From Planobispora longispora (GTDB lineage: Bacteria > Actinomycetota > Actinomycetes > Streptosporangiales > Streptosporangiaceae), in contig NZ_BOOH01000011.1 in assembly GCF_016863135.1 (NCBI RefSeq), positions 43,141 to 107,140 on the forward strand: a stretch of DNA of 64,000 nt. Reading direction: 5' to 3'. The notes under the pieces are model-generated. The model was not told where the DNA came from. It did no database searches and saw only the letters and a program-made list of their open reading frames with translations. Position 1 is the first letter of the stretch. Every line of letters starts with the position of its first letter. Shown in pieces: positions 19,244-63,484 of the stretch. The translations under genes were made by a program, and so were the position numbers.

Positions 19244-19275
19244 GGGAACTCCTCGCATCCCGTGGCCGGTGACCT

Positions 19276-19328
19276 CCGTACGGCACCGGCCATACACCGT
19301 ATGGCAGTAGCTACCATACGGCGTATGG
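19276..19328. promoter_or_regulatory. operator array in the P450/TetR divergent intergenic region
   Basis: CCGTACGG (19276-19283); CCATAC-acc-GTATGG (19290-19304); CCATAC-ggc-GTATGG (19314-19328). The two 15-bp palindromes are 24 bp apart centre to centre. The second overlaps the TetR ATG (19325). Confidence 0.55.
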
Positions 19329-19900: not shown

Positions 19901-19981
19901 CGGGCCGCTCCATCCGCTCGTGAAGGTCCGCTCGCGGTCCGCTCGGGGGAGTCCGCTGAGAGTCCGGTCCAGAGAGGCCGG

Positions 19982-21292: not shown

Positions 21293-21315
21293 GAGCCCTC
21301 CCAACATTCCAGTTG

Positions 21316-21354
21316 TGACATGTCAAAAGTAGAACGTTCATTGATGACATGTCA
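21316..21354. promoter_or_regulatory. two copies of the perfect palindrome TGACATGTCA in the CCO/PadR divergent promoter region
   Basis: TGACATGTCA at 21316-21325 and 21345-21354. It contains an ACATGT core like known PadR-family operators (ATGT-n-ACAT type). Confidence 0.55.
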
Positions 21355-21377
21355 ATCGAGGAATCTAAGATGACCTC

Positions 21378-22879: not shown

Positions 22880-22903
22880 CGACCCTCCCTGGACCCGTGG
22901 GCA

Positions 22904-24889: not shown

Positions 24890-24896
24890 ACTCGGT

Positions 24897-24913
24897 CACA
24901 GTAGTTGACTGTG
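24897..24913. promoter_or_regulatory. palindrome CACAGT-agttg-ACTGTG immediately upstream of the MTase start codon
   Basis: Read directly from the sequence. It sits 8 nt from the MTase ATG in the MTase/PP2C divergent region. Confidence 0.4.
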
Positions 24914-24973
24914 CTGAAATGGTCTACAGCCCGTTTGCTTGTGAAGTGCTTCAACCAGTGCTTTACTGCCTTC

Positions 24974-25771: not shown

Positions 25772-25793
25772 CGGCCGCCTTCAGGAGTCCCGG

Positions 25794-25815
25794 GCGGACG
25801 GCCGGCGGCGGCCGT
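25794..25815. terminator. GC hairpin between convergent PP2C and giant ATPase genes
   Basis: GGACGGCC-ggcggc-GGCCGTCC, an 8-bp stem between the stop at 25771 (+) and the stop at 25818 (-). Confidence 0.45.
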
Positions 25816-25817
25816 CC

Positions 25818-30920: not shown

Positions 30921-33085
30921 TCCTGGACCGTGTCGACGACGGAGCCGCCGGCGGTGATCGGGGCACCGCCGTCGCCCAGGATGTCCACGGCCGCCACGGG
31001 GGTCATGGCGGGCGCCGTGGTCGTCACGGTGGACGCGGGGCTCAGCAGTTCGCGCAGCTTCTGCGACTCCGCGCCGCCGCCGTTCATCAGCTTGACCAGC
31101 AGGGCCGAGAGCGACAGGTCCCGCACGTCGCCGCTGCCCAGCGAGCCGAGCGCCCGGGTCAGGTCGGCGGGCAGGCTCTGCGTCCCGTCCAGGTACGGCC
31201 CGGCGAGCGTGCGGGCCACGTCGGAGCTGTCCACGAAGCCGTCCAGGCTCTTGCCCAGGGTGACCGAGCCGACCAGCTTGTCGAAGAACACGCTGTCGCC
31301 GCCGACGATGTCGATGTTGGCCTTCTCCAGTCCGGCGGCCAGCACCACGGCCTGCGCCTCGGCGAGCTTGACCTGGGAGGTGACGCCGGCGAGCCGGATC
31401 TCCTTCTCGGCCTCCAGCCGCAGGCGGTACTCCTCGTGGCCGCGGCTCGCGTCGTCGAGCGCCGCCAGCGCCGCCGCCTTCTCGGTCAGGCCCTCGGCCT
31501 CCGCCTTCAGCTTCTCGCCGATCGTCGCGGCCGCGGCCAGCGCCTTCTCCCGCTCGCCCTCGGCCTCGGCCTTGAGCTTCTCGCGGATCGCGGTGGCGAC
31601 GGCGTGCGCCCTGGCCTGCTCGCCCTCCGCGGCGGCCAGCGCCTTCTCCCGCTCGACCGCGGCCTCGGCGCGGCCGACCTTCTCGATCGCGGCGGCGTTG
31701 CGCTCGGCGACCTGGACCTCGGCCAGGCCGACCGCGGCGGCCTCGGCCTGGACGCCCTCGGCCAGGCGGATCTTGGCGCGGGCGTCGAGCTCGGCGGCCT
31801 GCTGGCGCGACTCGGCCATCACCAGCGCCTCGCGCGCCTTGTACTTGGAGGCGGCCTCGGCGGCCTCGGCGGCCTTGATGTCCTTGACCAGGTTCTCCTG
31901 GGACTCCGCCTCGGCCTGGATGATCACGGCCTGGCGGGTCCGCTCGGCCTCCTCGACCACCCGCAGGCGCTTGATGCTCTCCTCCTGCTCGGCGACGGTC
32001 TTCTCGACCGCGATGCGCTCCCGGACCACCTCGGCGATCGAGCGCTTCTCGCCCTCGAGCTCCTTGTCCTTGGCGATGCGCGACAGCTCGGTCTCGCGCT
32101 CGCGGGAGATGACCTCCAGCATGCGGTCCTTCTCGATGCGCTCGCTCTCGATGGCGATGACCCGCTCGCGGTTCTTGGCCGCCACGGCGATCTCGCGGGC
32201 CTGGTTCTCCTGCTGGATGCCGAGCTGCTCCTGGGTGCGCAGGTCGGCGGCGTGCGCCTTGAGCCGCTCCTCGGCCTGGACCCGGGCGATCTCCGCCTCC
32301 TCGCGGGCCCGCATGGTCTCGATCTCGCGCTTCTGCTTGATCTCCGCGTCGGTCTGGCGCCGCTGCAGTTCGAGGATCGCCTCGCGGGCGTCCACGTTCT
32401 GGCGGGTGATCTCCTTCTCCTCGCGCCGCTGGAAGTCGTTGGTCCGCACGTGCTCGATCGCGGTCAGCTCGGTGATCTTCCGGATGCCCTGGGCGTCGAG
32501 GATGTTGTTCTTGTCGAGGGAGAGCAGCGAGGTCTGCTCCAGGTAGTCGATCGCCGCGTCCTCGAGGCTGTAGCCGTTCAGGTCGGTGCCGATCACCTGG
32601 ATGATCTGGTCGCGGAAGTGGTCGCGCTGGGTGTAGAGGTCGACGAAGTCGAGCTGCTTTCCGACGGTCTTGAGCGCCTCGGAGAACTTGGCGCTGAACA
32701 GCTCCTGCAGCGTCTCCTGGTCGCTGGCCCGGGCGGTGCCGATCGCCTGCGCGACCTTCACCACGTCCTCGGCGGTCTTGTTGACCCGGACGAAGAACGT
32801 GATCTTGATGTCCGCCCGGATGTTGTCCCGGCAGATCAGGCCCTCGCGGCCGGACCGTTCGATCTCGATGGTCTTCACCGAGATGTCCATGACCTCCGCC
32901 CGGTGGAGCACGGGCAGGACGACCGCCCCGGTGAAGGTGACGTCGACCTTGTTGACCTTGGAGACGATCAGGGCCTTGCCCTGTTCGACCTTGCGGAACA
33001 GGCGGGTGACCGTGATCACCATGGCGATGGCGACGAGGAGGACGACGGCGAGGAGCACGCCGAAGCCGGTGGAGATGACGTCCAT
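30917..33085 (-). CDS. flotillin (SPFH/band-7 domain, FloT/YuaG-like) with long EA-rich coiled-coil
   Basis: N-terminal TM (GVLLAVVLLVAIAMVI) and SPFH core. An extended ...AEAEGEREKALAAA... repeat region is typical of flotillins. Confidence 0.9.
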   Translation of the reverse strand: MDVISTGFGVLLAVVLLVAIAMVITVTRLFRKVEQGKALIVSKVNKVDVTFTGAVVLPVLHRAEVMDISVKTIEIERSGREGLICRDNIRADIKITFFVRVNKTAEDVVKVAQAIGTARASDQETLQELFSAKFSEALKTVGKQLDFVDLYTQRDHFRDQIIQVIGTDLNGYSLEDAAIDYLEQTSLLSLDKNNILDAQGIRKITELTAIEHVRTNDFQRREEKEITRQNVDAREAILELQRRQTDAEIKQKREIETMRAREEAEIARVQAEERLKAHAADLRTQEQLGIQQENQAREIAVAAKNRERVIAIESERIEKDRMLEVISRERETELSRIAKDKELEGEKRSIAEVVRERIAVEKTVAEQEESIKRLRVVEEAERTRQAVIIQAEAESQENLVKDIKAAEAAEAASKYKAREALVMAESRQQAAELDARAKIRLAEGVQAEAAAVGLAEVQVAERNAAAIEKVGRAEAAVEREKALAAAEGEQARAHAVATAIREKLKAEAEGEREKALAAAATIGEKLKAEAEGLTEKAAALAALDDASRGHEEYRLRLEAEKEIRLAGVTSQVKLAEAQAVVLAAGLEKANIDIVGGDSVFFDKLVGSVTLGKSLDGFVDSSDVARTLAGPYLDGTQSLPADLTRALGSLGSGDVRDLSLSALLVKLMNGGGAESQKLRELLSPASTVTTTAPAMTPVAAVDILGDGGAPITAGGSVVDTVQE

Positions 33086-33097
33086 GGATTCCCTCGG

Positions 33098-33745
33098 CTA
33101 GATGGGACGGTGGGGGTCGAGTTCCGCGTCGTACGGCATCACCCAGAAGAATTCGCCGCCGGAGTCGTAGGCGAAGATCAGGGCGGTGCTTCCGGCGAGG
33201 AAGACGTCGTCGCCGGTCTGTCGGACTTGTACGAGAGCGGAGGACCCGTCGGGAGCGGTGACCTCGGCCTGGCCGAAGTCCCCTCCCACCCGGCCCGTGC
33301 GGATGACGCAGGTGCGGCCCACGAAGTCGGCGCGGGACGGCGCGCGCTCCTTGCGCGCGACGCGCCGCAGGGGCAGCGTCAGCAGGCGGGTGCCGAGCCA
33401 GGCGCAGCCGATCGCCGCGACGGGCACGGCGGCCAGGGCGGCCGTGCCGGTGATGAGGGCGGACCCGGCGAGGCTGGCGAACCAGGCGATGGCGACCAGC
33501 AGCGAGACGGTCACCGAGACCGGCACCCCGCCGAGCCCGAGGCCCGCCAGGAAACCCGCCGCGCCCGAGAGCTCCGCGTCGCCGATCGCGTCGTCACCCG
33601 CGACGCCGTCGCCCGCCGCGTCGTCGAGCACGGCGCCGCCGAGAAGGGCGAGCAGCCAGTAACCGACCACCACGATCAGCGGGAAGGTGAACAGAACGGT
33701 CGGGAACGACAGCGCGGTCTCGGTGAAGCTGCCCAACTGGCCCAT
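33098..33745 (-). CDS. NfeD-like membrane protein (YuaF-like, OB-fold C-terminus)
   Basis: Multiple TM helices then a C-terminal beta-rich soluble domain. Immediately upstream of flotillin on the same strand, as in nfeD-floT operons. ATG at 33745 chosen because the upstream in-frame extension is AT-rich and non-coding-like. Confidence 0.7.
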   Translation of the reverse strand: MGQLGSFTETALSFPTVLFTFPLIVVVGYWLLALLGGAVLDDAAGDGVAGDDAIGDAELSGAAGFLAGLGLGGVPVSVTVSLLVAIAWFASLAGSALITGTAALAAVPVAAIGCAWLGTRLLTLPLRRVARKERAPSRADFVGRTCVIRTGRVGGDFGQAEVTAPDGSSALVQVRQTGDDVFLAGSTALIFAYDSGGEFFWVMPYDAELDPHRPI

Positions 33746-33899
33746 CGATGCGGAAGATCTCCCTGTCCGGTGTGCTCGCCTGCTCCCCCGAGCGTGTGGC
33801 TTCACCCGGATAAAGAATGAGTAAAAGAAATAGTTCCCGAAGCCTGAAAAATCTGGATATGCGAGGGACGGGAGGGGTGGAAGGGGGGCGCGGGAGAGC

Positions 33900-34010
33900 A
33901 CAGGAGGGCGCGGACGCGCGGGGGGAACCGCGAGAGGGGCGGACGCGCGTGGGGAGGCGTAAGGGCGCGGACGCGCGTGGGGAACGGCGTGGGAGGGCGC
34001 ACGGCATCGC
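33900..34010. repeat. G-rich tandem ~29-bp repeats (GGGCGCGGACGCGCGTGGGGA...) with many GGGG runs
   Basis: ggcgcggacgcgcggggggaacc / gagaggggcggacgcgcgtggggaggcgtaa / gggcgcggacgcgcgtggggaacggcgtggga. The G4-capable runs are on the + strand, i.e. the non-template strand for the minus-strand operon. Confidence 0.5.
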
Positions 34011-48717: not shown

Positions 48718-49107
48718 ATGGTCGTGAACCGAATCCTCACCAACATCCTGTCCGACCGGCTCCCCGAGACCAGGGACTTCTTCACCGGCCTGCTGGACCT
48801 CCAGGTCAACTTCGAGGAGGACTGGTACGTCCATCTGTCGGCGCCGGGGAACCTCGGCCTGGAGGTCGCCGTCTGGCGCCGTGACCACGAGCTGATCCCG
48901 CAGGCCCACCGCGCCGCGCCGTGCGGCACGATCCTGACCGTCGTCGTGGACGACGTGGACGCCGTCCACGAGCGCGCCGTGACGATGGGCGTCGAGGTCG
49001 TCGCCCCGCCCCGCGACCAGTTCTACGGGCAGCGGAGCTGTCTGGTGCTCGATCCCAACGGCCTGCTCGTGGATGTCTCCACCCCGGTGTCCCGAACCGT
49101 CTCCTGA
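48718..49107 (+). CDS. VOC/glyoxalase-family protein
   Basis: Short glyoxalase-fold protein (LDPNGLLVDV C-terminus). Confidence 0.65.
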   Translation: MVVNRILTNILSDRLPETRDFFTGLLDLQVNFEEDWYVHLSAPGNLGLEVAVWRRDHELIPQAHRAAPCGTILTVVVDDVDAVHERAVTMGVEVVAPPRDQFYGQRSCLVLDPNGLLVDVSTPVSRTVS

Positions 49108-49205
49108 ACGCGGCGGCAGCGGCGGGGGCCGTGATGCCGGGACCGGAAAGCAGGCATGGCCTGGAGAGCAATGGGCATATCTCCACACCGCTGAAGGGCG
49201 GTGAA

Positions 49206-51303
<2,098 letters not shown>

Positions 51304-51311
<8 letters not shown>

Positions 51312-53556
51312 TCCGAGGCCGCCAGACCCGGCGGCGGGCCGGCCCGCCTCCACCTACCGGTTCCAGCTGACCCCCGGCTTCGGGTTCGCCGAGGTGGCCG
51401 GACTCGCCCCCTACCTGCGGGAGCTGGGCGTCGGCCACGTCTACCTCTCGCCGATCCTGCAGTCCGTGCCGGACTCGACGCACGGCTACGACGTCACCGA
51501 CCACTCCCGGATCCGGGAGGAGTTCGGCGGGGCCGAGGGGCTGCGGGCGATGGCGGCCGCGCTCGCCGAGCACGGCCTGGGGATCGTGGTGGACATCGTC
51601 CCCAACCACATGACGGTCCCGGTGCCGGAGTCGGGCAACGCGCAGCTGTGGTCGGTGCTCGCCGAGGGGCCCGCCTCGCCGTACGCCTCGTGGTTCGACA
51701 TCCAGTGGTCGGACGGGAAAGTCAACATGCCGGTGATCGGCGACGACACCGAGCCCGTCGTGGACGGCGACGTGCTGCGCTACCACGACCACGTCTTCCC
51801 CCGCGCGGACACGCACTACCGGCTGGTCGACTGGCGGCGGGGGCCGGGGTACCGGCGTTTCTTCGACGTGTCGTCGCTGATCGGGCTCCGGGTGGAGGAC
51901 CCGGAGGTCTTCACCGCCACCCACGAGGTGATCCTCTCCCTGGTCCGGGAGGGGCTCGTCCAGGGGCTGCGGGTGGACCACCCCGACGGGCTGGCCGACC
52001 CGCGCGGCTACCTGGCCCGGTTGCGCGCCGCGTCGGGCGGGGTGTGGACCGTCGCGGAGAAGATCCTGGTCGGGGAGGAACGGCTCCCGGAGGACTGGGA
52101 CTGCGACGGCACCACCGGCTACGACGTGCTCAACCGGATCACCGGGCTGTTCGTGGACCCGGGCGGGGCCGGTCCGCTGCTCGACCTGTTCGTCCGGCAG
52201 ACGGGCGCGCCGCCCGACTACGCCGAGGTGGTCTACACGTCCAAGAAGCAGGTCCTCGACCTGTTCTTCGGCGCGGAGCTCGACCGGCTGGCCGAGGTCG
52301 CCGGGGCCGGCCGCGACGTGCTCGCGGAGCTGCTGGCCGCGATGCCCGTCTACCGGGCGTACGCGGTGCCGGGAGAGCCCGTGCCCGCGGCCTCGGCCGC
52401 CATCGTGGAGGAGGCGGGCCGGGTCGCCGCGGGGCGGCTGCCGGAGGGCGCCCCCGCGGGAGAGGCCGAGGAGGCGGTGGAGAAGGTGCTGTACGGCCCG
52501 GCCGAGGCCGTGGTCCGCTTCCAGCAGACCTGCGGCCCGGTCATGGCCAAGGGCGTGGAGGACACCGCGCTCTACCGGTGGTACCCGCTGTCGTGCCTGA
52601 ACGAGGTGGGCGGGGAGCCCGACCGGTTCGGCGGGACGCCGGAGGAGTTCCACGCCTTCTGCCGGGAGATGTCCCCGGGCACGATGACCACGCTCTCCAC
52701 CCACGACACCAAGCGCTCGGAGGACGTGCGGGCCCGGCTGGCCGTGCTGTCGGAGCTGCCCGGCCGGTGGGCGGAGGCGGTCGGGGAGTGGTCGGCCAAG
52801 GTCTCCTTCGACCCGTTCCTGGACTACCTGGCCTGGCAGAACCTGATGGCCGCCTGGCCGATCGGGCCGGACCGGTTCTTCGACTACCTGTTCAAGGCGG
52901 CCCGCGAGGCCAAGACCTCGATCTCCTGGGTCGCCCCCGACCCGGCCTACGAGGAGGGGCTGCGGGCCTTCGCGAACCGGGCGATCGGCGAGTGCGGCCC
53001 CTCGATCGCGGAGTTCACCGCCTCGATCGAGCCCTACGCGCGGTCCAACTCGCTGAGCCAGAAGCTGGTCCAGCTCATGCTGCCCGGCGTCCCCGACCTC
53101 TACTGGGGCAACGAGATCACCGACTTCTCCCTGGTGGACCCGGACAACCGCCGCCCGGTCGACTTCGAGCTGCGCCGCCGGATGCTCGCCGCGCCGGGCG
53201 TGGACGGGGGAGAGGCCGCGGAGAACGGGCGGGGCTCCTCCTGGGACGCGGCCAAGCTGCTCGTCACGAGGCGGGCGCTGAACCTGCGGCGGCGGCTCGA
53301 CCCGGCGGCGCCGTACGTCCCGCTGGAGGCCGACGAGCACGCGATCGCCTTCGCCCGCGGGGAGCAGGCGGTGGCGGTGGCGACCCGGCTCCCGGTGGGG
53401 CTGGAGCGGCGCGGCGGCTGGGGGGACCGCACGCTGACGCTGCCGCACGGGCGCTGGCGGGATCTGCTGTCCGGCGCCGAGCACACCGGGCGTGTCCCCC
53501 TGGCCCACCTGCTGTCACACCATCCGGTCGCGCTTCTGGAGAGGGAGAGGGGATAG
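51304..53556 (+). CDS. treY: malto-oligosyltrehalose synthase
   Basis: N-terminus YRFQLTPGFGFAEVAGLAPYLRELGVGHVYLSPI and VDIVPNHM. GTG start overlaps the glgX 3' end. treZ lies downstream. Confidence 0.9.
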
Positions 53557-53559
53557 CCG

Positions 53560-55269
53560 ATGTTCGAGGTCTGGGCGCCGCAGGCGCAGTCGGTCGAGGT
53601 GGAGATCGGCGGGACCCGGCATCCCATGCGGCCCGGGCGGGGCGGCTGGTGGACGGCCGAGGTGCCCGGGGCCGGCCACGGCACGGACTACCGGTTCCGG
53701 CTGGACGGCGGCGACCCGCTGCCCGACCCGCGGACCCGCTGGCAGCCCGAGGGGATCTTCGGGCCGAGCCGGGTCTACGAGCACGACCGGTTCGTGTGGA
53801 GCGACGGCCTGTGGACCGGCCGTACCCTGCCCGGCTCGATCATCTACGAGCTGCACATCGGCACCTTCACCCCGGCCGGGACCTTCGAGGCGGCGATCGA
53901 GAAACTGGACCACCTGGCCGAGCTGGGCGTCGGCTTCGTGGAGGTCATGCCGGTGCCGCCGGTCCCCGGCGAGCGCAACTGGGGTTACGACGGGGTGGAC
54001 CTGTGGGCGGTCACCGACAACTACGGCGGTCCCGACGGGCTCAAGCGTTTCGTGGACGCCTGTCACCGCCGGGGGCTCGGAGTGATCCTCGACGTCGTCT
54101 ACAACCACCTCGGGCCGTCGGGCAACTTCCTGGCCCCCTTCGGCCCCTACTTCCACTCCTCCGCCTCCTCGTTCTGGGGGCAGGCGGTCAACCTGGACGG
54201 TCCCGGCTCCGACGAGGTGCGCCGCTACTTCATCGGCAACGCGCTGCAGTGGCTGCGCGACTACCACATCGACGGGCTGCGCCTGGACGCCGTGCACGCG
54301 CTGCACGACGAACGCGCCACGCACTTCCTGGAGGAGCTGGCCGTCGAGGTGGACGCGCTCTCGGCCGCCCTCGGCCGCCCGCTGACGCTCATCGCCGAGT
54401 CCGATCTCAACGACCCCGGGCTGATGACCCCGCGCGAGGCCGGCGGGTACGGCCTGGCCGCGGCCTGGAACGACGACGTCCACCACGCCCTGCACGCGGC
54501 GGTGACCGGCGAGCGGCACGGCTACTACGAGGATTTCGCCACCGCGTCGCCGCTGTCCCTGGCCAAGGTGCTGACCTCGGCCTACTACCACGACGGGACC
54601 TACTCGGCCTTCCGCGGGCGCGGTCACGGCCGCCCGGCCCGGCACGTCCCGGGCCACCGGTTCGTCGTCTGCGCGCAGAACCACGACCAGATCGGCAACC
54701 GCGCCGAGGGCGACCGGATGGACCCCGAGGCGCTCCGGCTGGCCGCCGGGCTCCTGCTGACCTCGCCGTTCACGCCCATGTTGTTCATGGGCGAGGAGTG
54801 GGGGGCGCGCACGCCGTTCCTGTTCTTCACCGACCACGTCGAGCCTGCGCTGCGGGAGGGCGAGGCCGACCGGCGGCGCCGGGAGTTCGTGGGCTTCGGC
54901 TACGACGACTGGGCGGAGAAGGCGCCCGACCCGGGCGAGGAGATGACGTTCCTGCGCTCCAAGCTCGACTGGAGCGAGCTCGACGACCCGGCCCACCGCG
55001 CCCATCTCGACTGGTACCGCGCCCTGGTCGCGCTGCGCCGTACGCACCCGGACCTGTCGGACTCCCGGCTGGACCGGGTCCGGGTGGAGCACGGCGACGG
55101 CTGGCTGGTCGTCCACCGGGGGGCCTTCCGGGTGACGGCCAACCTCGGCCGCGCCCCGGTCACGCTCCAGACCGAGCCCGCCGAGATCGTGCTCGCCTCC
55201 GACCCCGGCGTCCACCTGGGGCCCGATCTCGTCCTCCCGCCCCGCTCCCTGGCGATCCTGCGGGTCTGA
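53560..55269 (+). CDS. treZ: malto-oligosyltrehalose trehalohydrolase
   Basis: GH13 motifs VILDVVYNHLGP, GLRLDAVHA, AESD and QNHDQIGNR. Confidence 0.9.
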   Translation: MFEVWAPQAQSVEVEIGGTRHPMRPGRGGWWTAEVPGAGHGTDYRFRLDGGDPLPDPRTRWQPEGIFGPSRVYEHDRFVWSDGLWTGRTLPGSIIYELHIGTFTPAGTFEAAIEKLDHLAELGVGFVEVMPVPPVPGERNWGYDGVDLWAVTDNYGGPDGLKRFVDACHRRGLGVILDVVYNHLGPSGNFLAPFGPYFHSSASSFWGQAVNLDGPGSDEVRRYFIGNALQWLRDYHIDGLRLDAVHALHDERATHFLEELAVEVDALSAALGRPLTLIAESDLNDPGLMTPREAGGYGLAAAWNDDVHHALHAAVTGERHGYYEDFATASPLSLAKVLTSAYYHDGTYSAFRGRGHGRPARHVPGHRFVVCAQNHDQIGNRAEGDRMDPEALRLAAGLLLTSPFTPMLFMGEEWGARTPFLFFTDHVEPALREGEADRRRREFVGFGYDDWAEKAPDPGEEMTFLRSKLDWSELDDPAHRAHLDWYRALVALRRTHPDLSDSRLDRVRVEHGDGWLVVHRGAFRVTANLGRAPVTLQTEPAEIVLASDPGVHLGPDLVLPPRSLAILRV

Positions 55270-55376
55270 CCGCCCGGCGTTCCGCACGGCCCGCCCGCGG
55301 GGAGTGCAACCGCCGGCGACCCCGGCGGCGAAGGGATCCGTGTGGGCAGTCACCGACATTTCAAGGGACGGGCACG

Positions 55377-57512
55377 GTGCGGAGCGTGAGCGCGGCGGTG
55401 TGCGGGCGCAGGGGCAAATGGGTGGTCCTCGTGATCTGGCTGCTGCTGGCGGCCGGGGCGGGGATGCTCGGCGGCAGGCTGGAGGAGGTCCAGAGCAACG
55501 ACCCGGCGTCGTTCCTGCCGGACGGGGCCGAGTCCACGGTGGTGCAGGAGGCGCAGCGCCGGTCCGCGGCCGGGAACCAGGTCCCGGCGATCGTGGTCTA
55601 CCAGGGGCGGCCGGTGGCCGAGGCCGCCGCGGACGCCGAGCGGTTCGCGGAGGTGGAGGGGGTCGCCGGGCGGGTGTCGCCCCCGGTCCCCGCTCCCGGC
55701 GCGGAGGCCGTGCAGGTCGTCGTGCCGCTGGACGGGAGCGACTACGGCGCGCTGACCGCGGCGGTCGACCGGATCCGCGAGATCACCGGTGACCGCGCGT
55801 ACGTGACCGGCCCGGCGGGGCAGAGCGCCGACACCATCGAGGTCTTCGGGTCGATCGACGCGACGCTCCTGGCGGCGACCTCCGCCGTGGTCGTCCTGGT
55901 GCTGCTGCTGACCTACCGCAGCCCGCTGCTGTGGCTGATCCCGTTCCTGTCGGCGGGCGTGGCGCTGGCCTGCTCGCGGGCGGGCAACTACCTGCTGGCC
56001 GAGTACGCCGGCCTGACCGTGAACGGGCAGAGCGGGGGCATCCTGCTGGTGCTGGTCTTCGGCATCGCCACCGACTACGCGCTGCTGCTGGTCGCCCGCT
56101 ACCGCGAGGAACTCGCCCTGCACGAGGACCGGCACGAGGCGATGGCCTCCGCGCTGCGCCGGGCCACCCCGGCGATCGCGGCCAGCGCGGCGACCGTGGC
56201 GGCCGGGCTCTGCTGCCTGCTGGTGGCCGAGCAGAACGCCACGCGCGGGCTCGGGCCGGTCTGCGCGGTGGGGGTGGCCTGCGCGCTGGCCGCCATGCTC
56301 ACCCTGCTGCCCGCGCTGCTGGTGATCGTCCCGCGCGGGGTGTTCTGGCCGAGGGTCCCGGTGTACGGCGGCGCGGCCGAGACCGGGTCGCGGCTCTGGG
56401 ACCGGATCGGCCGCGTGATCGCCCGCCGTCCCCGGATCACCTGGCTCGGGACGGCGGCGGCCCTGGGCGGCCTGGCCCTGACGCTGACGGCCGCGACCGT
56501 CGGGCCGCTGGCCGATGCCGACGCCTACCGCGCCGAGCCCGAGTCCGTACGCGGCGCGCAGGTCCTGGACCGGTACTTCGGCACCGGTCAGGAGGGGTCG
56601 CTGGTGGTGCTGGCCCCGGAGGGCGAGGCCGAGCGGATCGCGGCGGCGGTGGCCGCGGACCCGGGCGTCGAGCGGATCGGGGACCGGGGCGCGGGCGGGC
56701 GGCCCGGCGGCGCGGACGGGCGGCCGGACGATGCGGGCGAGAGGCCGGACGGCGGCGCCCAGGCGGTGGACGGCCGGGTCCTGCTCCGCGGCACGTTGAA
56801 GGACGCTCCGGACAGCCGGGCCGCCTACGAGACGGTCGAGCGGCTCAGGGAGATCCCCGGCGCCACGGTCGGCGGCACCGCCGCGGTCAACCTGGACGGC
56901 ACGCTCGCCTCCGAGCGCGACCTGCGGGTCGTCGTCCCCCTGATCCTGGGGGTCATCCTGGTCATCCTGGTGGTCCTGCTCCGGGCGCTGGTCGCGCCGC
57001 TGCTGCTGATGGCCACCGTCGTGCTGTCCTTCGCGGCGGCGCTCGGGGTGAGCGGCCTGATCTTCACGGAGCTGTTCGGCTTCGCCGCCGTGGACACCGG
57101 AGTGCCGCTGCTGGCCTTCGTCTTCCTGGTGGCGGTCGGCGTCGACTACAACATCTTCCTGATCACCCGGGTCCGGGAGGAGGCCGCGGTCCGCGGCACG
57201 CGCGAGGCCGCCCTCGTCGGGCTCTCCGCCACGGGAGGGGTGATCACCTCGGCGGGCGTGGTGCTCGCGGCCACCTTCGCGGTGCTGGGCGTGCTGCCCC
57301 TGGTGGTCCTGGCCGAGCTGGGCTTCGTCGTCGCGTTCGGCGTCCTGCTCGACACCTTCGTGGTCCGCTCGGTCCTGCTGACCGCGCTGACGCTGGACGT
57401 GGGCCGGTGGATGTGGTGGCCGGACCGGCGGCTCACCCGGGAGCGGGCGGACGGCTCCGGCGGCGTCGCCGTCGCGGAGACGGCGAGGAGCGCGGCCGTC
57501 CGGCGGGGATGA
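55377..57512 (+). CDS. MMPL-family (RND-superfamily) membrane transporter
   Basis: Two six-TM bundles with intervening extracytoplasmic domains, and an MMPL-type motif (GVDYNIFLITRVREE). The track ORF is a frame fusion with upstream genes; GTG at 55377 chosen. Confidence 0.75.
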   Translation: MRSVSAAVCGRRGKWVVLVIWLLLAAGAGMLGGRLEEVQSNDPASFLPDGAESTVVQEAQRRSAAGNQVPAIVVYQGRPVAEAAADAERFAEVEGVAGRVSPPVPAPGAEAVQVVVPLDGSDYGALTAAVDRIREITGDRAYVTGPAGQSADTIEVFGSIDATLLAATSAVVVLVLLLTYRSPLLWLIPFLSAGVALACSRAGNYLLAEYAGLTVNGQSGGILLVLVFGIATDYALLLVARYREELALHEDRHEAMASALRRATPAIAASAATVAAGLCCLLVAEQNATRGLGPVCAVGVACALAAMLTLLPALLVIVPRGVFWPRVPVYGGAAETGSRLWDRIGRVIARRPRITWLGTAAALGGLALTLTAATVGPLADADAYRAEPESVRGAQVLDRYFGTGQEGSLVVLAPEGEAERIAAAVAADPGVERIGDRGAGGRPGGADGRPDDAGERPDGGAQAVDGRVLLRGTLKDAPDSRAAYETVERLREIPGATVGGTAAVNLDGTLASERDLRVVVPLILGVILVILVVLLRALVAPLLLMATVVLSFAAALGVSGLIFTELFGFAAVDTGVPLLAFVFLVAVGVDYNIFLITRVREEAAVRGTREAALVGLSATGGVITSAGVVLAATFAVLGVLPLVVLAELGFVVAFGVLLDTFVVRSVLLTALTLDVGRWMWWPDRRLTRERADGSGGVAVAETARSAAVRRG

Positions 57513-57624: not shown

Positions 57625-58608
57625 TCAGGCCGGGACGTGGTTGCGCAGGCGGAGCTCTTCCGGATACGGGGCGAAGTACGTCTGGTCGCGGACGTAGTCC
57701 TCGCCCTCGCCCCGCGCGTCGTGGAGCAGCAGGGCCGCCGGCACGCTGAGGGCCACCCGCCCGTCCCGGTAGGAGGTGATGACCTCCGCCAGGTCGGCCC
57801 GGCGGGCCGGGTCCAGGGAACCGGCGATCATTCCCGCGCAGTGCTGGAGCACGTTGACGTTGCGGCCGATGCTCGCCTTGTGGGAGAACGCCGTGCGGAA
57901 GGCGCGGCCGTACCTGGCCGCCAGCTCCCGGCGGCCGAGCACGCCGGCCAGGGCCACGGCCCGGCCCGCCTCGTTGTAGGAGACGGGGTCGTGGGCGAGG
58001 AGCTGCATCTTGTGACGGGAGTGGAACGCGATCAGCTCACGCGGGCCCCAGTCGCTCTCCAGGAACGCGCGCAGCCGGGCGTGGGCGAAGATCCGTTCGA
58101 CGAAGGTCTCGCGCAGCATCGGGTCGTGCAGCCGCCCCTCGTCCTCCACGGGCAGCAGCGGGTGTTCCTCCATGATCCGGGCCGCGAACAGGCCCCGGTT
58201 CCTGCGGTCCGCCGGCATCTCCCCCGCGTAGATCGGGACGCCGTGGATCCCGCAGCTGGGGCTCTTGGCCTTGAAGACGTAGCCGTCCACGTCGAGGGTG
58301 CGCGCCCGCTCGGCGGCGAGGGCCGTCATCCGCGCGGTGTGGTCCGTCCGCGACTTCCTGGCGATGAGCCGGGGGCCCTCGGGAGAACGTTCGAGGTGAA
58401 GGCTCTCCCGGGGGGCGCCGAGGCCGATCTCCATCTCCGGGCAGACCGGCACCCAGTCGACGTACGGATCGAGCTCGCCGCTGAGGAACCGGTCGCGGCT
58501 GTGCCCGCCGTTGAAGCGCACCAGCTCGCCGATCAGGCAGCTCGACACCGCGACGCGGGGCCTGACCTCGTCCGTCCGGGCGGTGGGAAGACCGTTCATG
58601 TCGTTCAC
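57625..58608 (-). CDS. DUF523/DUF1722 (YbbK/YbgA-like) protein
   Basis: PRVAVSSCLIGELVRFNGGHSRD is a DUF523 N-terminus; the C-terminal half is DUF1722-like. Such genes are commonly adjacent to photolyase genes. Confidence 0.7.
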   Translation of the reverse strand: MNDMNGLPTARTDEVRPRVAVSSCLIGELVRFNGGHSRDRFLSGELDPYVDWVPVCPEMEIGLGAPRESLHLERSPEGPRLIARKSRTDHTARMTALAAERARTLDVDGYVFKAKSPSCGIHGVPIYAGEMPADRRNRGLFAARIMEEHPLLPVEDEGRLHDPMLRETFVERIFAHARLRAFLESDWGPRELIAFHSRHKMQLLAHDPVSYNEAGRAVALAGVLGRRELAARYGRAFRTAFSHKASIGRNVNVLQHCAGMIAGSLDPARRADLAEVITSYRDGRVALSVPAALLLHDARGEGEDYVRDQTYFAPYPEELRLRNHVPA

Positions 58609-58615
58609 ATCCCCT

Positions 58616-59143
58616 TCATGCCGCCGTGGAGGTGAGGACGCTCGACAGCCGGCGCAGGCCGCGCGCGGTGCGGGCCTTGACGGTGCCGAGCGGGACGCCG
58701 AGGAACTCGGCGATCTCCCGCTGCGTCAGCTCGCCGTAGTAGGCCAGTTCGATGGCCTGGCGCTGGGGCGCGGGCAGTTCGGCCAGCGCCCGGCGGACCT
58801 GGTCGCGGTCGGCCATGCCGTCGCCGGCGGCCCGGCCGTCCGCGCCGGGCGGATCGGCGACCGCCTCCAGCGGCACCGTCTGCGGGGCGCGCGCCCGCAG
58901 GTGGTCGACCGCGCGTTTGTGCGCGATGCCGAGCAGCCACGCGGGCAGACTCCGGGACGGGTCGAACCGGTGCCGTGAGCGCCAGACCTCGGCGAAGACC
59001 ACCTGCCGTACGTCTTCCACGTCGTACGGCGGCACGAAACGGCGCAGGTAGGCGCCGATGAGGGCGGAGTACGTGCGCAGGCATTCCGCGAGCGCGGTGT
59101 CGTCGCCGGCGGCGAGCCGTGTGTTGAGGGTTTCCGCGGTCAT
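58616..59143 (-). CDS. ECF sigma-70 factor (LitS-like position downstream of LitR-like regulator)
   Basis: Region 2 (VRQVVFAEVWRSRHRFDPSRSLPAWLLGIAHKRAVDHLR) and region 4 (LPAPQRQAIELAYYGELTQREIAEFLGVPLGTVKARTARGLRRL). Confidence 0.75.
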   Translation of the reverse strand: MTAETLNTRLAAGDDTALAECLRTYSALIGAYLRRFVPPYDVEDVRQVVFAEVWRSRHRFDPSRSLPAWLLGIAHKRAVDHLRARAPQTVPLEAVADPPGADGRAAGDGMADRDQVRRALAELPAPQRQAIELAYYGELTQREIAEFLGVPLGTVKARTARGLRRLSSVLTSTAA

Positions 59144-59259
59144 GACGACCTCCTCATAAGAAACCTATTCAAAACTTATTCATACCGGTTGGTCCGCCAT
59201 GATCGCAAGGTGTCGGCCCAGGTCGGTGCCGGGATGACGGAGGAAGGGACGCCGGAATG

Positions 59260-59392
59260 GGAGGGGAGGGGCTCCGGCGGAGAGGCCGCGAGGGCTTCGG
59301 CGAAGAGGCGGCGAGGGCCCCGGTGAAGGGAAGACAGGGGCTCCGGCGAAGGGAGGACGGGGGCTCCGGCGCGGGGCTCAGCCCAGGGCCGA
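59260..59392. repeat. about five degenerate ~23-bp tandem repeats (GGGCTCCGGCGAAGGGAGGACGG) abutting the LitR-like gene stop codon
   Basis: ggggctccggcggagaggccgcga / gggcttcggcgaagaggcggcga / gggccccggtgaagggaagacag / gggctccggcgaagggaggacgg / gggctccggcgcggggctcagc. Shares the core GCTCCGGCGAAGG with the array at 16042-16113. Confidence 0.45.
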
Positions 59393-60394
59393 GGAGATCC
59401 GGGCGAGGGCGTCGCGGAAGGAGGTGACGTGCGGGATCGACGCCGGCAGCCCGGCCCGCCATCCCGGGCCGCCCGCCATGACGCGGCTCGCCGGGCGCGA
59501 CGCCGGCAGCCCGGTGAGCGCTCCGGGATCACCGGTCGACGCCTGCTGGGACCAGACGAACACGACCGCCGGGGCGAGCCGGCGCGTCGCCCCGGCCAGC
59601 GCGGAGAAGGGCGTCCGGGCTCCCAGGACGCGCGACTCGATCCGGTGCTCGGTGGCCAGCGCCGCGGCCAGCGCGTAGATCGGGAGGCTGTGCTGTTCGT
59701 CCTCGGCGCAGGCCAGCAGCACCGGCCGGTCGTTGACCGGCGCCCGGGGCGCCTTGACCAGCGGGAGCAGGGCGGCGAGCACCCGGTCGGAGAAGACGTG
59801 CTCGACCTCGATGGCGGCCCCGGTCGCGGCCTGCCGCGCGCAGATCGCCTCGAAGACCGGGATGACCAGGCGCTCCCAGGTCCACACGACCCCGTGCCGG
59901 GTCAGCGCGGCCCCGAGCCAGCCGGACAGGGACGAGCTGTCCAGCGCCACCGCGGACCGGGCCATCATCGCGGGCGTCGGGATCTCGTGCCGGGGCGGCG
60001 GGACCGGAAGCCCGCCGGGCGTGTCGTCACCGGGGGACGCCCCCCGGGACCGTCCGGCGGAGACCGTCTCCCCGGCGGCCGGGACACCGGGCCTCCCGGT
60101 GGCCGCGACGGCCGCCTCCGCCGGGGCGTCCGCAGCTCCGGCGGGACGGGCCCGCAACACCTGCCGCGCGGCGTCGGCGGCGGGGACACCGGTCTTGATC
60201 AACCGGTTCATCTCCTCCAGCCGCCACAGGTCGCCGGAGTCGTAGCGGCGGTGCCCGCCGGGGCTGCGGCGGCTCGGGCCGACGCCGTAGCGCAGGTTCC
60301 AGGTGCGGAGCGTCGGGGCGGGCACGCCGAGCCGCCGGGCGACGGCGCCGATGCCGTAGCCCGGTTCGTCTTCGCTGGTCGGTCGCTCGTCCAT
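59378..60394 (-). CDS. MerR-family regulator with C-terminal cobalamin (B12)-binding domain (LitR/CarH-like light-responsive regulator)
   Basis: MerR HTH YGIGAVARRLGVPAPTLRTWNLRYGV...HRRYDSGDLWRLEEMNRL. C-terminal Rossmann-like domain with an E/DxH B12-ligand-like motif (CAEDEQHSLPIYALAAAL). Confidence 0.7.
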   Translation of the reverse strand: MDERPTSEDEPGYGIGAVARRLGVPAPTLRTWNLRYGVGPSRRSPGGHRRYDSGDLWRLEEMNRLIKTGVPAADAARQVLRARPAGAADAPAEAAVAATGRPGVPAAGETVSAGRSRGASPGDDTPGGLPVPPPRHEIPTPAMMARSAVALDSSSLSGWLGAALTRHGVVWTWERLVIPVFEAICARQAATGAAIEVEHVFSDRVLAALLPLVKAPRAPVNDRPVLLACAEDEQHSLPIYALAAALATEHRIESRVLGARTPFSALAGATRRLAPAVVFVWSQQASTGDPGALTGLPASRPASRVMAGGPGWRAGLPASIPHVTSFRDALARISSALG

Positions 60395-60462
60395 GACTCT
60401 CGTCTTCCGTGCGCCGGACTGCCGGGGGTCGCCCGCGCGCTCAGGACATTCTTTCGCAACAG

Positions 60463-60492
60463 GTTCGCCCGCGGATGCAACCGCGGCCGAAC
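60463..60492. promoter_or_regulatory. imperfect inverted repeat GTTCGCCCGCGG-atgcaa-CCGCGGCCGAAC in the litR-like/phr divergent region
   Basis: 11/12 arm complementarity, read directly from the sequence. About 25 bp upstream of the phr ATG. Confidence 0.35.
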
Positions 60493-60513
60493 CCGTGCGC
60501 GGAGAGGGTGGCG

Positions 60514-61552
60514 ATGGACACCGTCGTCGTTCTCTTCACCAATGACCTCCGGGTGCACGATCACCCGGCGCTGACCGCCGCGTGCGCGGAGGCCCGGCAC
60601 GGGGTTCCGCGCGTTCCCCGGCGTGACGATCGTGCCGCCGGAGGCCCTGCGCCCTTCCGGAGGCGGCGACCACTACCGGATCTTCACGCCGTACCTGCGG
60701 GCCTGGACGCGCGCCGGGCGCAGGCAGGTGCTGGACGCCCCGGAGAAGGTGCCGTTCCCCGGCGGGCCGGCCCTCGGCCGGCCGGAGATCTCGCGGGAGC
60801 CGTACGGCTCCACGCGGCGGGCGAGGCGGCCGTACGAGTTCCCGCGGGGCGGGGAGAGCGCGGCGCGCCGGCGGATGGCGCGGTGGCTGGAGTGGTGCGC
60901 GGAGGACTACGCGGACGGCAAGGACGACCTCGCCGGGGACCGGACTTCCCGGCTCGGCCCCTACCTGCGGCTGGGCTGCGTGTCCCCGCTGGAGCTGGAG
61001 TCGCTGGCGGAGAACGGCGAATTCGTCCGGCAGCTGTGCTGGCGCGACTTCTACCACCAGGTGACGTCCGCGTTCCCGCGCATCGACCGGGACGACTACC
61101 GGCCCCGCGGGACACGGTGGCGTGACGACGACGGCGCGATCCGGGCGTGGAAGGAGGGCCTGACCGGGGTGCCGATCGTCGACGCCGGCATGCGCCACCT
61201 GCTCGCCGAGGGCTGGATGCCCAACCGGGTCCGCATGATCACGGCGTCGTTCCTGGTCAAGAGGGTGTTCGTGGACTGGCGTGTGGGCGCCGGCCACTTC
61301 GCCGAGCTGCTGCTCGACGGCGTCGTGGCGAGCAACTACGGCAACTGGCAGTGGGTCGCGGGGACGGGGAACGACACCCGTCCCAACCGGACCCTCAGCC
61401 CCGTCCGGCAGGCCAGGCGGTTCGATCCGCAGGGAGAGTACGTCCGGCGCTACCTTCCCGAACTGGCCGCCGTCCCGGCGAAGGCGGTCCACGAGCCGTG
61501 GCGGTCCGCCCCGGTCAAGGGATATCCGCCGCCGCTGGTCCCGTTCGGCTGA
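60514..61552 (+). pseudogene. phr: deoxyribodipyrimidine photolyase, decayed (internal ~100-codon deletion plus frameshift)
   Basis: Frame 1 gives MDTVVVLFTNDLRVHDHPALTAACAEARHG, the photolyase N-terminal domain start, then loses sense near 60600. Frame 2 resumes at VTIVPPEALRP...YRIFTPYLRAW and continues through the intact FAD domain (WREFY, TGVPIVDAGMRHL, NRVRMITASFLVK, GNWQWVAG). About 100 residues of the alpha/beta domain are missing. Confidence 0.6.
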
Positions 61553-61693
61553 CCGCCCCGCCCGGGCGGTCCGGGGGAGCCGCCCCGGCGGAAGGCCGCG
61601 GAACTGTTCTAGAACCTCGTTCAGGAAAGTGTTCCGTGAGTTACGATCTGCGCCAGAGTGATCAATGGGCCCGGCGGTTCGAGGCAGGTGCGT

Positions 61694-62464
61694 GTGAACG
61701 ACAGGAACCCCTACGGCATCGACGTGAACACGGCCAATGTCGCGCGGATCTACGACTACATGCTCGGCGGGAAGGACAACTTCGCCGCCGACCGCGCCGC
61801 CGCCGAGGAGATCCTCAAGGCGTTCCCCGAGTCGCGCGAGGGCGTGCGGCTCAACCGGGAGTTCCTCGGCAACGTGGTCCGCCACCTCGCGGCGGAGGCG
61901 GGCGTCCGGCAGTTCCTCGACATCGGCGCCGGGCTTCCCACGCAGAAGAACGTGCACGAGGTCGCGCACGAGGTGAACCCCGAGGCCCGCACGGTCTACG
62001 TCGACAACGACCCGGTCGTGTGCGTGCACGGCAGGGCGCTGCTCGCCAGCACTCCGACGGTCGCCATGGTCGAGGGCGATCTGCGCGCCCCCGAGGAGAT
62101 CTGGGACGGAGCGGCGAGGACCGGCCTGCTCGTCCCGGGAGAGCCGGTCGCCGTGCTCATGGTGGCGCTCCTGCACTTCCTCGACGACCCCTACGCCGAG
62201 GTCGCCAAGGTCAGGGAGCTGATGGCCCCCGGCAGCTTCCTGGTGATCACTCACCTGTCGATGGCCGAGCGCCGGGCCAAGGACACCGACGCGGTGAAGG
62301 ACGTCTACTCCCGGGCCAACTCGGGCGTGGTGCCCCGGACGCCGGAGGAGATCCGGCGCTTCTTCGGCGACTTCGAGCTCCTGGACAACAAGCGGTTCAT
62401 CGCGCCCAACGCGCTGGAGCGCATGTCGGTCCTCGGCGCGGCCGGAGTGGGCCGCAAGCCCTAG
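61694..62464 (+). CDS. SAM-dependent methyltransferase (DUF574/SAM_MT family)
   Basis: ARIYDYMLGGKDNFAADR and FLDIGAGLPT; the family is common in actinomycetes. GTG start with GAGGCAGG upstream. Confidence 0.7.
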   Translation: MNDRNPYGIDVNTANVARIYDYMLGGKDNFAADRAAAEEILKAFPESREGVRLNREFLGNVVRHLAAEAGVRQFLDIGAGLPTQKNVHEVAHEVNPEARTVYVDNDPVVCVHGRALLASTPTVAMVEGDLRAPEEIWDGAARTGLLVPGEPVAVLMVALLHFLDDPYAEVAKVRELMAPGSFLVITHLSMAERRAKDTDAVKDVYSRANSGVVPRTPEEIRRFFGDFELLDNKRFIAPNALERMSVLGAAGVGRKP

Positions 62465-62542
62465 GATCCGGGACGGCCGGAAAGACGGGCCCCGGGGCCG
62501 GGGCGGGCGGAACGATTTGATCGTCTCACGCGTCGCACAGGT

Positions 62543-63484
62543 GTGACCCCCTTCGACATCAACGATGACGATCTGCGCGCCGCCCGCGAGAGAGTGCGGC
62601 GGCTGGAACGGCTGACCGGGCAGCGCCGGGCCGCGGCCGCGCAGATCGAGGAGACCGTACGGCTCATCGCCGAGCTGGAGACGCGGCTGGCGGAGGAGGA
62701 GCACGACGTCTCCCGCCTGGAGGAGGGGGGTTTCGCGGCGTTCCTGGCGGGCCTGACGGGCTCCAGGGAGGAACGGCTGGCCAGGGAGCGGGCCGAGGCG
62801 CAGGCCGTACGGGAACGGCTGCGCGGGCAGCGGACCCGGCTGGAGTGGCTGAGAGCCGACCTGGCGGCCGTGGAGAGCGGCCTGACCGAGGTGGGAGGGG
62901 CCCGCGAGGAGTTCGACGCCCTGCTCGACCGCAAGGAGCGCCTGCTGGTGCGGTCGGGTGACGCGCGCGGCCGCGAGCTCGTCGAGCTCGGCCGGAACCT
63001 CGCCGACACCGTCGCGGACCTGCGGGAGCACGAGGAGGCCCACCGCGCCGGAGCCGTCGCGGCCGAGGCGATCGGCCGGGTCCTGCACTGCCTCGGCGGC
63101 GCGCGCGGCGCGTCCACCTGGGACGTGGTCGGCGGCGGTCTCATCGCGGACATGATGGAGCACGGCCACCTGCGCGACGCGGACGAGGCGGCCCTGCACG
63201 CCCAGCGGGCGCTGGACGCCTTCGCCCGGGAGCTGGCCGACGTCGGCGTGCACGTCGCCCCCGCCCTCCCCGAGGTGGACACCCGCGTGTTCGCCGACAT
63301 GTTCTTCGACAACATCATCACCGACGCGCTCAAGCACCAGCGGATCTCCCGCACCGGCGAGGCCGTGGCCGAGATGGCCCGGTGGGTGAACGGCACGATG
63401 GGCGACCTGGCCGCGCGCGGCGCCGAGCTGGCCGGCCGGCGCGACTCCCTCGTCGCCCGCAGGCAGGACGTCCTGACGGGCTGA
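62543..63484 (+). CDS. hypothetical coiled-coil protein
   Basis: 313-aa ORF with strong coding bias. The N-terminal half is heptad-like (RLERLTGQRRAAAAQIEETVRLIAELETRLAEEEHDVSRLEE). Confidence 0.55.
   Translation: MTPFDINDDDLRAARERVRRLERLTGQRRAAAAQIEETVRLIAELETRLAEEEHDVSRLEEGGFAAFLAGLTGSREERLARERAEAQAVRERLRGQRTRLEWLRADLAAVESGLTEVGGAREEFDALLDRKERLLVRSGDARGRELVELGRNLADTVADLREHEEAHRAGAVAAEAIGRVLHCLGGARGASTWDVVGGGLIADMMEHGHLRDADEAALHAQRALDAFARELADVGVHVAPALPEVDTRVFADMFFDNIITDALKHQRISRTGEAVAEMARWVNGTMGDLAARGAELAGRRDSLVARRQDVLTG

Follow-up and report, generated by a model that had tools for sequence, protein, structure and literature searches.

A probable LitR/LitS-type gene cluster of Planobispora longispora with a predicted tRNA 4-thiouridine desulfidase and a photolyase gene broken by a deletion

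Genes and layout of the locus

The stretch of 64,000 nucleotides (nt) of the soil actinomycete Planobispora longispora analyzed here (contig NZ_BOOH01000011.1, positions 43,141-107,140, forward strand), in the following called the window, consists of high-GC DNA of the actinomycete type and carries a gene cluster encoding a LitR/CarH-like regulator with a MerR and a cobalamin (B12)-binding domain, a sigma factor of the extracytoplasmic function (ECF) type, a DUF523/DUF1722 fusion protein predicted to be RudS, and the remains of a photolyase gene (phr). On the minus strand the regulator gene is followed by a spacer of 234 nt, the sigma factor gene and, after 7 nt, the DUF523/DUF1722 gene, and phr is oriented divergently. 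The calls of open reading frames (ORFs) and Pfam agree with the positions and orientations that the original prediction, made from the sequence alone, had given for these four genes. The features are as follows:

55305-55332, plus strand: third sigma-LitS-type motif, TGCAACC-N17-CGAA, found by motif scan 45 nt upstream of the MMPL gene
55377-57512, plus strand: gene of an MMPL-family RND transporter (Pfam MMPL, 8.8e-104), convergent with rudS
57625-58608, minus strand: rudS (predicted), TudS(DUF523)-DUF1722 fusion (PF04463, 9.4e-35; PF08349, 1.6e-29)
58616-59143, minus strand: gene of a LitS-like ECF sigma factor of 175 amino acids (Pfam Sigma70_r2 and r4_2)
59161-59182, no strand assigned: candidate LitR operator, two tandem direct repeats of 11 base pairs (bp) (Tandem Repeats Finder)
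59179-59208, minus strand: putative housekeeping-type promoter of sigma-rudS, a conserved block of fixed spacing
59269-59371, no strand assigned: 23-bp tandem repeat, 4.5 copies, in the regulator-sigma spacer (Tandem Repeats Finder score 90)
59378-60394, minus strand: gene of the LitR/CarH-like regulator, Q-type (Pfam, NCBIfam, phmmer, AlphaFold2/Foldseek)
60453-60479, minus strand: sigma-LitS-type promoter facing the regulator gene, TGCATCC-N16-CGAA (exact motif match)
60476-60503, plus strand: sigma-LitS-type promoter facing phr, -35 TGCAACC, -10 CGGA (read from the sequence)
60514-61552, plus strand: phr pseudogene of a class I cyclobutane pyrimidine dimer photolyase (Pfam, tblastn, DNA alignments)

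For comparison 80 related loci were used for footprinting, of which 73 are full-length and served for the counts of gene content. The best genome match is Planobispora rosea, the regulators being 81% identical. The sigma factor gene follows the regulator gene in 67 of the 73 full-length loci, so that this arrangement is not due to chance, while rudS is present in 45, phr in 38 and the complete set of four genes in 29. Judged by this gene content, the regulator-sigma pair is the constant core of the module and phr and rudS are its variable cargo. In one locus of an uncultured actinomycete (L071, 3152-6924) two tandem LitR-like paralogues lie upstream of the sigma factor gene.

The regulator is composed of a MerR helix-turn-helix, a disordered linker, a four-helix bundle and a Rossmann-type cobalamin-binding domain. 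Its N-terminus matches Pfam MerR_1 (6e-12) and, with residues 12-86, the NCBIfam CarH model, and its C-terminal half was aligned by phmmer to T. thermophilus CarH and to the photoreceptor domain of Chloracidobacterium CtMerR (8jbs). A Foldseek search with the AlphaFold2 model (pLDDT 83) returned exclusively CarH and CtMerR cobalamin-binding photoreceptor structures among the top 50 PDB matches, with E values down to 5e-15, TM values of 0.75-0.79 and a root-mean-square deviation of about 3 A over the B12 domain. The modelled regulator has the CarH/LitR fold, including the B12-binding fold of the C-terminal domain, the absence of which would have refuted the original prediction.

The DUF523/DUF1722 fusion was characterized in 2024 as RudS, an enzyme that removes 4-thiouridine (s4U) from tRNA, and rudS genes were reported in light-responsive operons together with LitR and PhrB (PMC11417400). 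The window protein contains both domains in full length (PF04463 in residues 19-157, PF08349 in residues 200-316), and its cysteines Cys24, Cys56 and Cys119 are spaced by 32 and 63 residues, compared to 31-32 and 64-66 residues for the [4Fe-4S]-ligand cysteines of validated RudS proteins (PMC11417400, Table 1). It is 92% identical to the P. rosea orthologue and, over residues 16-322 (94% of its length), 42.3% identical (E 1e-56) to a gene product of Escherichia phage 1H12, the position of that gene being consistent with RudS_vir, which was validated in the same study (PMC11417400). No solved relative was found at E <= 0.001 in a phmmer search of PDB sequences. By domains and cysteine spacing the protein is predicted to be RudS, i.e., a tRNA 4-thiouridine desulfidase, and with a gap of only 7 nt between them its gene is probably co-transcribed with that of the sigma factor. 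The suggestion that this protein could be an output of the locus is supported.

The phr gene starts with an ATG at 60514 and its first 25-33 codons, approximately, are in frame 1, while the part encoding the FAD-binding domain lies in frame 2 and ends with its stop codon at 61552. Inside the gene a deletion of about 260 nt has shortened the N-terminal alpha/beta domain by about 85 codons and shifted the frame, and in DNA alignments its junction (60588-60613) lies between short GTGCGCGG...CCGG direct repeats. Only positions 1-30 and 127-158 of the 164 positions of the DNA_photolyase profile (PF00875) are left, in different frames; in tblastn, intact orthologues match the window with residues 1-45 and then, varying with the orthologue, from about residues 117-149 onwards, again in different frames. 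The interval between the two parts is 10 nt in the window vs 258-273 nt in nearly all of 42 relatives. The FAD-binding helical domain is present (PF03441, FAD_binding_7, 9.7e-65 in ORF 60623-61552; NCBIfam deoxyribodipyrimidine photo-lyase, 1.6e-65), and the surviving 309 codons contain no stop codon. They are 70-78% identical to the orthologues, as are the neighboring genes, suggesting that the lesion is recent. A broken photolyase had been predicted and is real, but the lesion is this internal deletion and not a simple frameshift.

The lesion might be an artefact of assembly or sequencing, with an intact photolyase at the locus of the organism. Another public P. longispora record (BFE87053.1, P0122) shows, against window positions 59183-59968, a truncated N-terminus and a regulator frameshift after residue 272 that is absent from the window, indicating that at least one assembly of the species has indel errors; a public protein fragment of the species is identical to the window regulator across 130 residues. 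However, the loss of about 260 nt with a clean junction in short direct repeats is no homopolymer indel, the flanking repeats are too short for an assembly collapse, and the -10 element of the phr promoter is altered as well. Furthermore, only about five phr codons are left in the closest relative P. rosea, and the gene is missing from this site in three Planomonospora species. An artefact is hence regarded as highly improbable. As phr is present in just the 38 full-length loci mentioned above and cargo turnover is the norm, its loss in P. longispora is ordinary turnover.

Downstream of phr and co-directional with it (61658-63484, plus strand) are a Methyltransf_19 gene (61658-62464, 1.8e-74) and a gene for a coiled-coil protein of 313 amino acids with no Pfam family (62543-63484). 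One or both of these genes are found downstream of phr in many related loci, and in P. rosea, which lost phr, the phr-side promoter is retained and followed immediately by these genes. They may form one transcription unit with phr.

Putative promoters, candidate operator and the proposed cascade

The ECF sigma factor (TIGR02937, sigma70-ECF, 7.4e-25) is of the two-domain type with regions 2 and 4 and is genetically linked to the litR-like regulator gene; no anti-sigma gene lies next to its gene. The spacer between phr and the regulator gene contains two back-to-back sigma-type motifs on opposite strands with overlapping -35 elements. The consensus on the regulator side is cGGTTGCATCC-N16/17-CGAAAGAATG, which was found at the same place in 41 related loci, and that on the phr side is cGGATGCAACC-N16/17-CGAAga, found in 42 related loci with about 8-10 nt between its end and the phr ATG. 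Of the two motifs in the window spacer, the one facing the regulator gene is exact, whereas the -10 element on the phr side reads CGGA vs CGAA in all of the 42 related loci. Exact copies of TGCAWCC-N16/17-CGAA occur twice in the window vs 0.12 expected, both upstream of genes and properly oriented. For the Streptomyces sigma-LitS the consensus GCATCCR-N15-CVGAAD was derived from crtE promoters (PMC11519972), and the window motif corresponds to it in the -35 (GCATCC) and the -10 (GAA) with 17-18 nt between them. As the motif fits this experimentally derived consensus, a cascade of the LitR-LitS type is the best reading of the locus, in line with the type of circuit originally predicted, and the window sigma factor probably recognizes TGCAWCC-N16/17-CGAA promoters.

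Two further candidates were discarded. The GGTTGCATCC palindrome was considered as a MerR-type operator and rejected, as the copy at the MMPL gene is not palindromic and CGAA is present on both sides at the sigma-LitS spacing. Additional motif matches in L008 and L018 (about 11.1 kb) and, at the corresponding position, in L007 (6359) fall within coding sequence of the opposite strand and were ascribed to chance. In Streptosporangium canum (L060, 5826-5922) the regulator-side promoter is present in three tandem copies, 35 nt apart, representing a natural promoter amplification.

The second exact copy in the window lies upstream of the MMPL gene. Four further genomes of Planobispora and Planomonospora (L001, L002, L003 and L063) carry the motif at this position, and there the alignment shows the -35 and -10 blocks as the best conserved parts of an otherwise poorly conserved upstream region. 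The encoded protein matches TIGR00833 (1.4e-132), its closest solved structures are MmpL4 and MmpL5, and the gene of its orthologue adjoins rudS in L001, L002, L003, L019 and L063. From this the MMPL transporter is probably a member of the regulon in Planobispora and Planomonospora. A run of three alpha-amylase-family genes (48921-55269, plus strand), which look like a set for trehalose synthesis (treX/treY/treZ-like), ends 36 nt before this motif.

Directly upstream of the sigma factor gene lies the AT-rich block TATGAATAAGTTTTGAATAGGTTT, consisting of two tandem 11-bp repeats, with TTGCGA 18 nt before it. On the plus strand the repeats read AAACCTATTCA AAACTTATTCA, which corresponds to nnnnTnnTCAn in the CarH register, and Tandem Repeats Finder reported them with period 11 and two copies. 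CarH operators are tandem 11-bp repeats of the form nnnnTnnACAn (PMC9304148), so the window core TnnTCA is one base off the CarH core TnnACA. The pattern is unique in the window (0.01 expected) and occurs once per locus in 73 of the 80 related loci, always just upstream of the sigma factor gene, or of rudS if the sigma factor gene is absent, and it travels with sigma-rudS where the pair is inverted or displaced. In the Acrocarpospora loci L041 and L043 (about 6990-8060), which have no sigma factor gene, it is located directly upstream of rudS right after the regulator gene; by this layout the circuit of these loci would have a single tier, rudS being its direct target. The repeats are thus a candidate LitR operator. 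They overlap the -10 region and the start of a putative housekeeping-type promoter of sigma-rudS, composed of TTGCGA (59208-59203) as -35, a spacer of 18 nt and TATGAA (59184-59179), a block that is conserved at fixed spacing in the related loci.

The spacer between the regulator and sigma factor genes contains the 23-bp repeat immediately after the regulator stop codon. Its transcript is C-rich and unstructured, as expected of a Rho-loading site, and other species-specific repeats are found at this spot in related loci. The spacer RNA shows no significant structure (fold z-score +1.2), and a terminator scan found no intrinsic terminator on the minus strand, including the region between the two genes.

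From the genes, the fold and the conserved motifs at their positions we infer the protein-DNA pairs, the cobalamin binding and the light response of a two-tier light-inducible cascade of the LitR/LitS kind, wired to functions in ultraviolet (UV) and near-UV damage rather than to carotenoid genes, which we consider fairly probable. In the dark, the CarH-like regulator, probably loaded with cobalamin via His235, would bind to the two tandem 11-bp repeats overlapping the -10 of the housekeeping-type promoter and would thereby block transcription of sigma-rudS. In the light, it would leave the DNA, resulting in synthesis of the ECF sigma factor and RudS. The sigma factor would then read the divergent pair of TGCAWCC-N16/17-CGAA promoters, driving phr, the regulator gene as feedback and, by read-through, further sigma factor and RudS, and it would read the third motif copy in front of the MMPL exporter gene. 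RudS would strip s4U, a photosensitive near-UV chromophore, from tRNA. In P. longispora the photolyase output was recently destroyed by the deletion of about 260 nt, and the -10 of the phr promoter carries a substitution; the circuit would persist because it is still needed for rudS and, probably, for the MMPL gene. The promoter design is compact, as two divergent ECF promoters share overlapping -35 elements.

The notion that the sensor was retained and the output lost was overstated, as rudS is kept and a conserved sigma-type promoter precedes the MMPL gene. Moreover, phr is not the canonical output of LitR-LitS circuits, which is crt; in agreement with the original prediction a Pfam scan of the window ORFs called by GC3 yielded no gene of crt biosynthesis. 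As to the postulated rewiring of the regulon, phr and rudS come and go across the full-length loci, and the loss of phr in the window is one case of such turnover. The observation behind the original prediction is confirmed, and its interpretation was largely right but overstated.

One alternative is a cobalamin-binding regulator that senses not light but the supply of B12 or some other stress, with the sigma regulon being a general stress set that includes phr and rudS. The conservation of the B12 domain with an altered adenosyl pocket and the MMPL, methyltransferase and coiled-coil neighbors, which have no evident link to light, would be compatible with this. Yet the two most frequent cargo genes encode a light-driven DNA repair enzyme and a remover of the near-UV chromophore of tRNA, and the promoter motif is that of the light-inducible sigma-LitS regulon of Streptomyces, making such a role very unlikely.

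Several findings weigh against a light-inducible LitR/LitS-type cascade. The sigma factor is 38% identical to the presumed LitS of Streptomyces, compared to 35-42% for SigK-like sigma factors; as its identity to LitS does not exceed these values, its assignment as LitS depends on promoter motif and linkage. The candidate operator has only two clear direct repeats, vs three or four for T. thermophilus and B. megaterium CarH. The putative sigma-rudS promoter agrees with the -35 and -10 consensus in no more than 8 of 12 positions and was not called by the promoter scan. The match of the regulator to the Pfam B12-binding family reaches only 9.5e-4, under the gathering score, a weak match that is backed by the phmmer alignment and the predicted fold. 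An Rfam scan of the window found neither a cobalamin riboswitch nor any other family. Finally, the tryptophan that caps the adenosyl group in CarH is a glutamine in 117 of 120 clade members and the equivalent of the adjacent His132 is an alanine. In CarH this tryptophan contacts the adenosyl group and is described as crucial for photoreceptor activity, and the B12-independent paralogue CarA is devoid of it (PMC9304148).

The predicted cobalamin pocket of the regulator

Light-responsive cobalamin domains are described by the signature GxxW, EH, GxxH and GxxxP (PMC11796333). The equivalents in the window regulator are C185xxQ188, E198-H199, D232xxH235 and G258xxxP262, i.e., the adenosyl-capping motif Wx9EH/GxxW is not intact, as EH is kept while the tryptophan is replaced by Q188 and the glycine by C185. 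The B12 motif D/ExHxxG/P is present as E233-x-H235-x-x-P238, with H235 as lower axial histidine, followed by G258-x-x-x-P262. Conservation was assessed in the 120 closest homologues and in 149 representatives of the wider family. E198, H199, H235, G258 and P262 are invariant in all of the closest homologues, and position 188 is glutamine in 117 and tryptophan in none of them. In the wider family tryptophan is found at this position in 103 of the 149 representatives and glutamine in nine, five of which are the five closest representatives. All of the 120 closest homologues share the recognition helix TLRTWNLRY, in parallel to the near-invariant candidate operator; this helix differs from the RxWERRY of CarH at two positions. 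By these alignments the regulator is a clade-specific variant within Streptosporangiaceae, termed Q-type here. The replacement of tryptophan by glutamine throughout the clade, on which the original prediction was silent, renders B12-dependent photosensing uncertain.

It is conceivable, though rather speculative, that the Streptosporangiaceae regulators constitute a distinct Q-type branch of cobalamin photoreceptors, in which the tryptophan and the light-state histidine are replaced by a conserved glutamine and alanine while the other pocket residues are invariant. Such a branch might differ in its upper ligand, its photochemistry or its wavelength sensitivity, or might no longer depend on B12, and it would govern, via the ECF sigma factor, a dedicated near-UV defence regulon made up of photolyase, the removal of s4U from tRNA and an exporter of lipids or metabolites, with RudS and not pigment synthesis as core output. 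A search of the available literature found no publication on LitR or CarH in Streptosporangiaceae.

Alternatively, the wiring could be the same with a regulator that resembles CarA, binding the repeats with no need for adenosylcobalamin and not being light-sensing itself; derepression would then require another signal, be it from an antirepressor, from singlet oxygen or UV damage, or from a partner photoreceptor as in class II LitR with its short LOV protein. The clade-wide absence of the Wx9EH tryptophan and of the His132 equivalent would fit such a regulator; the CarA of M. xanthus is B12-independent and has retained EH and the B12 motif but not the tryptophan (PMC9304148), and class II LitR acts via a separate LOV protein (PMC9758184). 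However, in CarA the tryptophan region is deleted, while in the Q-type regulators Q188, G192, E198 and H199 show little or no variation, which argues for a constrained and still used pocket on the upper face, and the axial histidine and GxxxP are invariant as well. Furthermore, none of the genes conserved in the cluster encodes a LOV, BLUF or CarS-like protein, and the nearest relatives outside the clade are canonical proteins that retain the tryptophan (W-type). A CarA-like regulator is for these reasons unlikely, even if it deserves serious consideration.

For the LitR/LitS-type cascade proposed here, the Q-type cobalamin domain and RudS as proposed core output of a light regulon are of main interest. 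The physiological role of RudS has so far been inferred from overexpression in E. coli; here, RudS would stand under a sensor-sigma cascade in which the photolyase is dispensable, and the locus makes tRNA s4U removal as light-induced defence directly testable. More than 100 clade sequences with tryptophan replaced by glutamine in the adenosyl pocket bear on the question which residues are needed for CarH photochemistry and on the design of optogenetic tools.

Apart from this locus, the window contains a gene for an RPE65-family carotenoid or stilbene cleavage oxygenase (19982-21307, 2.5e-114), adjoined by those for a P450-flavodoxin-FAD-NAD fusion of 1210 amino acids resembling P450 BM3 (16106-19738) and for a PadR regulator; no sigma-LitS motif lies near this group (16106-21947). 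A possible defence or DNA-modification island (21986-33901) comprises genes for a Ser/Thr kinase (21986-22879), an N6 DNA methylase (22904-24889), a PP2C phosphatase (24905-25771) and a DUF3686, DUF7902 and AAA protein of 1700 amino acids (25818-30920), and two ORFs with no Pfam family (30917-33085 and 33098-33901).

Comparison with known light-responsive systems

The CarH proteins of T. thermophilus and B. megaterium share with the window regulator the domain order, the fold, EH, the axial histidine and GxxxP, and their operators consist of tandem 11-bp direct repeats overlapping promoter elements, an architecture that the candidate operator of the window resembles. In contrast, CarH represses crt promoters directly with no sigma intermediate, while a sigma step is proposed for the window. 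CarH uses three or four repeats with the core TnnACA, vs two with TnnTCA in the candidate operator; RxWERRY of the CarH recognition helix is RTWNLRY in the window regulator, and W131 and H132 of CarH correspond to Q188 and A189. M. xanthus CarA, a paralogue of CarH, has EH and the B12-binding motif and is devoid of the Wx9EH tryptophan, whereas the window protein has a conserved glutamine at this position; no CarS-like gene was seen at the window locus.

The class II LitR systems of Pseudomonas (PplR/PmlR, PhrB, RudS) have in common with the window a light-responsive cluster of a LitR-family regulator, photolyase and RudS (PMC11417400; PMC9758184). Their regulator, however, consists of the helix bundle only, is B12-independent and acts with a short LOV partner, and no ECF sigma factor is involved, while the window regulator has a complete B12 domain.

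The closest system is LitR-LitS of Streptomyces (S. coelicolor, S. griseus), in which, as proposed for the window, a regulator with MerR and B12 domains controls a linked ECF sigma factor gene, the promoters have a GCATCC -35 and a (C)GAA -10 at 17-18 nt, and the unit contains no anti-sigma gene. On a Streptomyces plasmid (L083) the sigma factor gene lies divergent from that of a W-type LitR; the regulator and the sigma factor are each 37-38% identical to the window proteins (sigma factor: 38%, E 1e-26), and a matching promoter motif is located just downstream of the sigma factor gene. An attempt to prove LitS orthology directly failed: a tblastn search of plasmid records with the sigma factor returned many SigK-like sigma factors at 35-42%, and the L083 pair gave just 38%; two contexts (L081 and L082) were inspected and contained no LitR, no crt gene and no motif. 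The ECF group cannot be assigned by sequence alone.

The original prediction had equated the gene order with that of LitR-LitS-type circuits of actinomycetes. In Streptomyces, litR and litS diverge from a bidirectional promoter region common to both; the window genes are co-directional. Further differences are that in the window a sigma-type promoter is predicted to also drive the regulator gene, that crt operons are the outputs in Streptomyces and phr, rudS and the MMPL gene those proposed here, that the Streptomyces protein examined keeps the GxxW tryptophan which the window regulator has lost, and that the AT-rich repeat operator of the window was not seen in the Streptomyces spacer examined. 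Taken together, the locus extends the known biology of these systems and does not overturn it.

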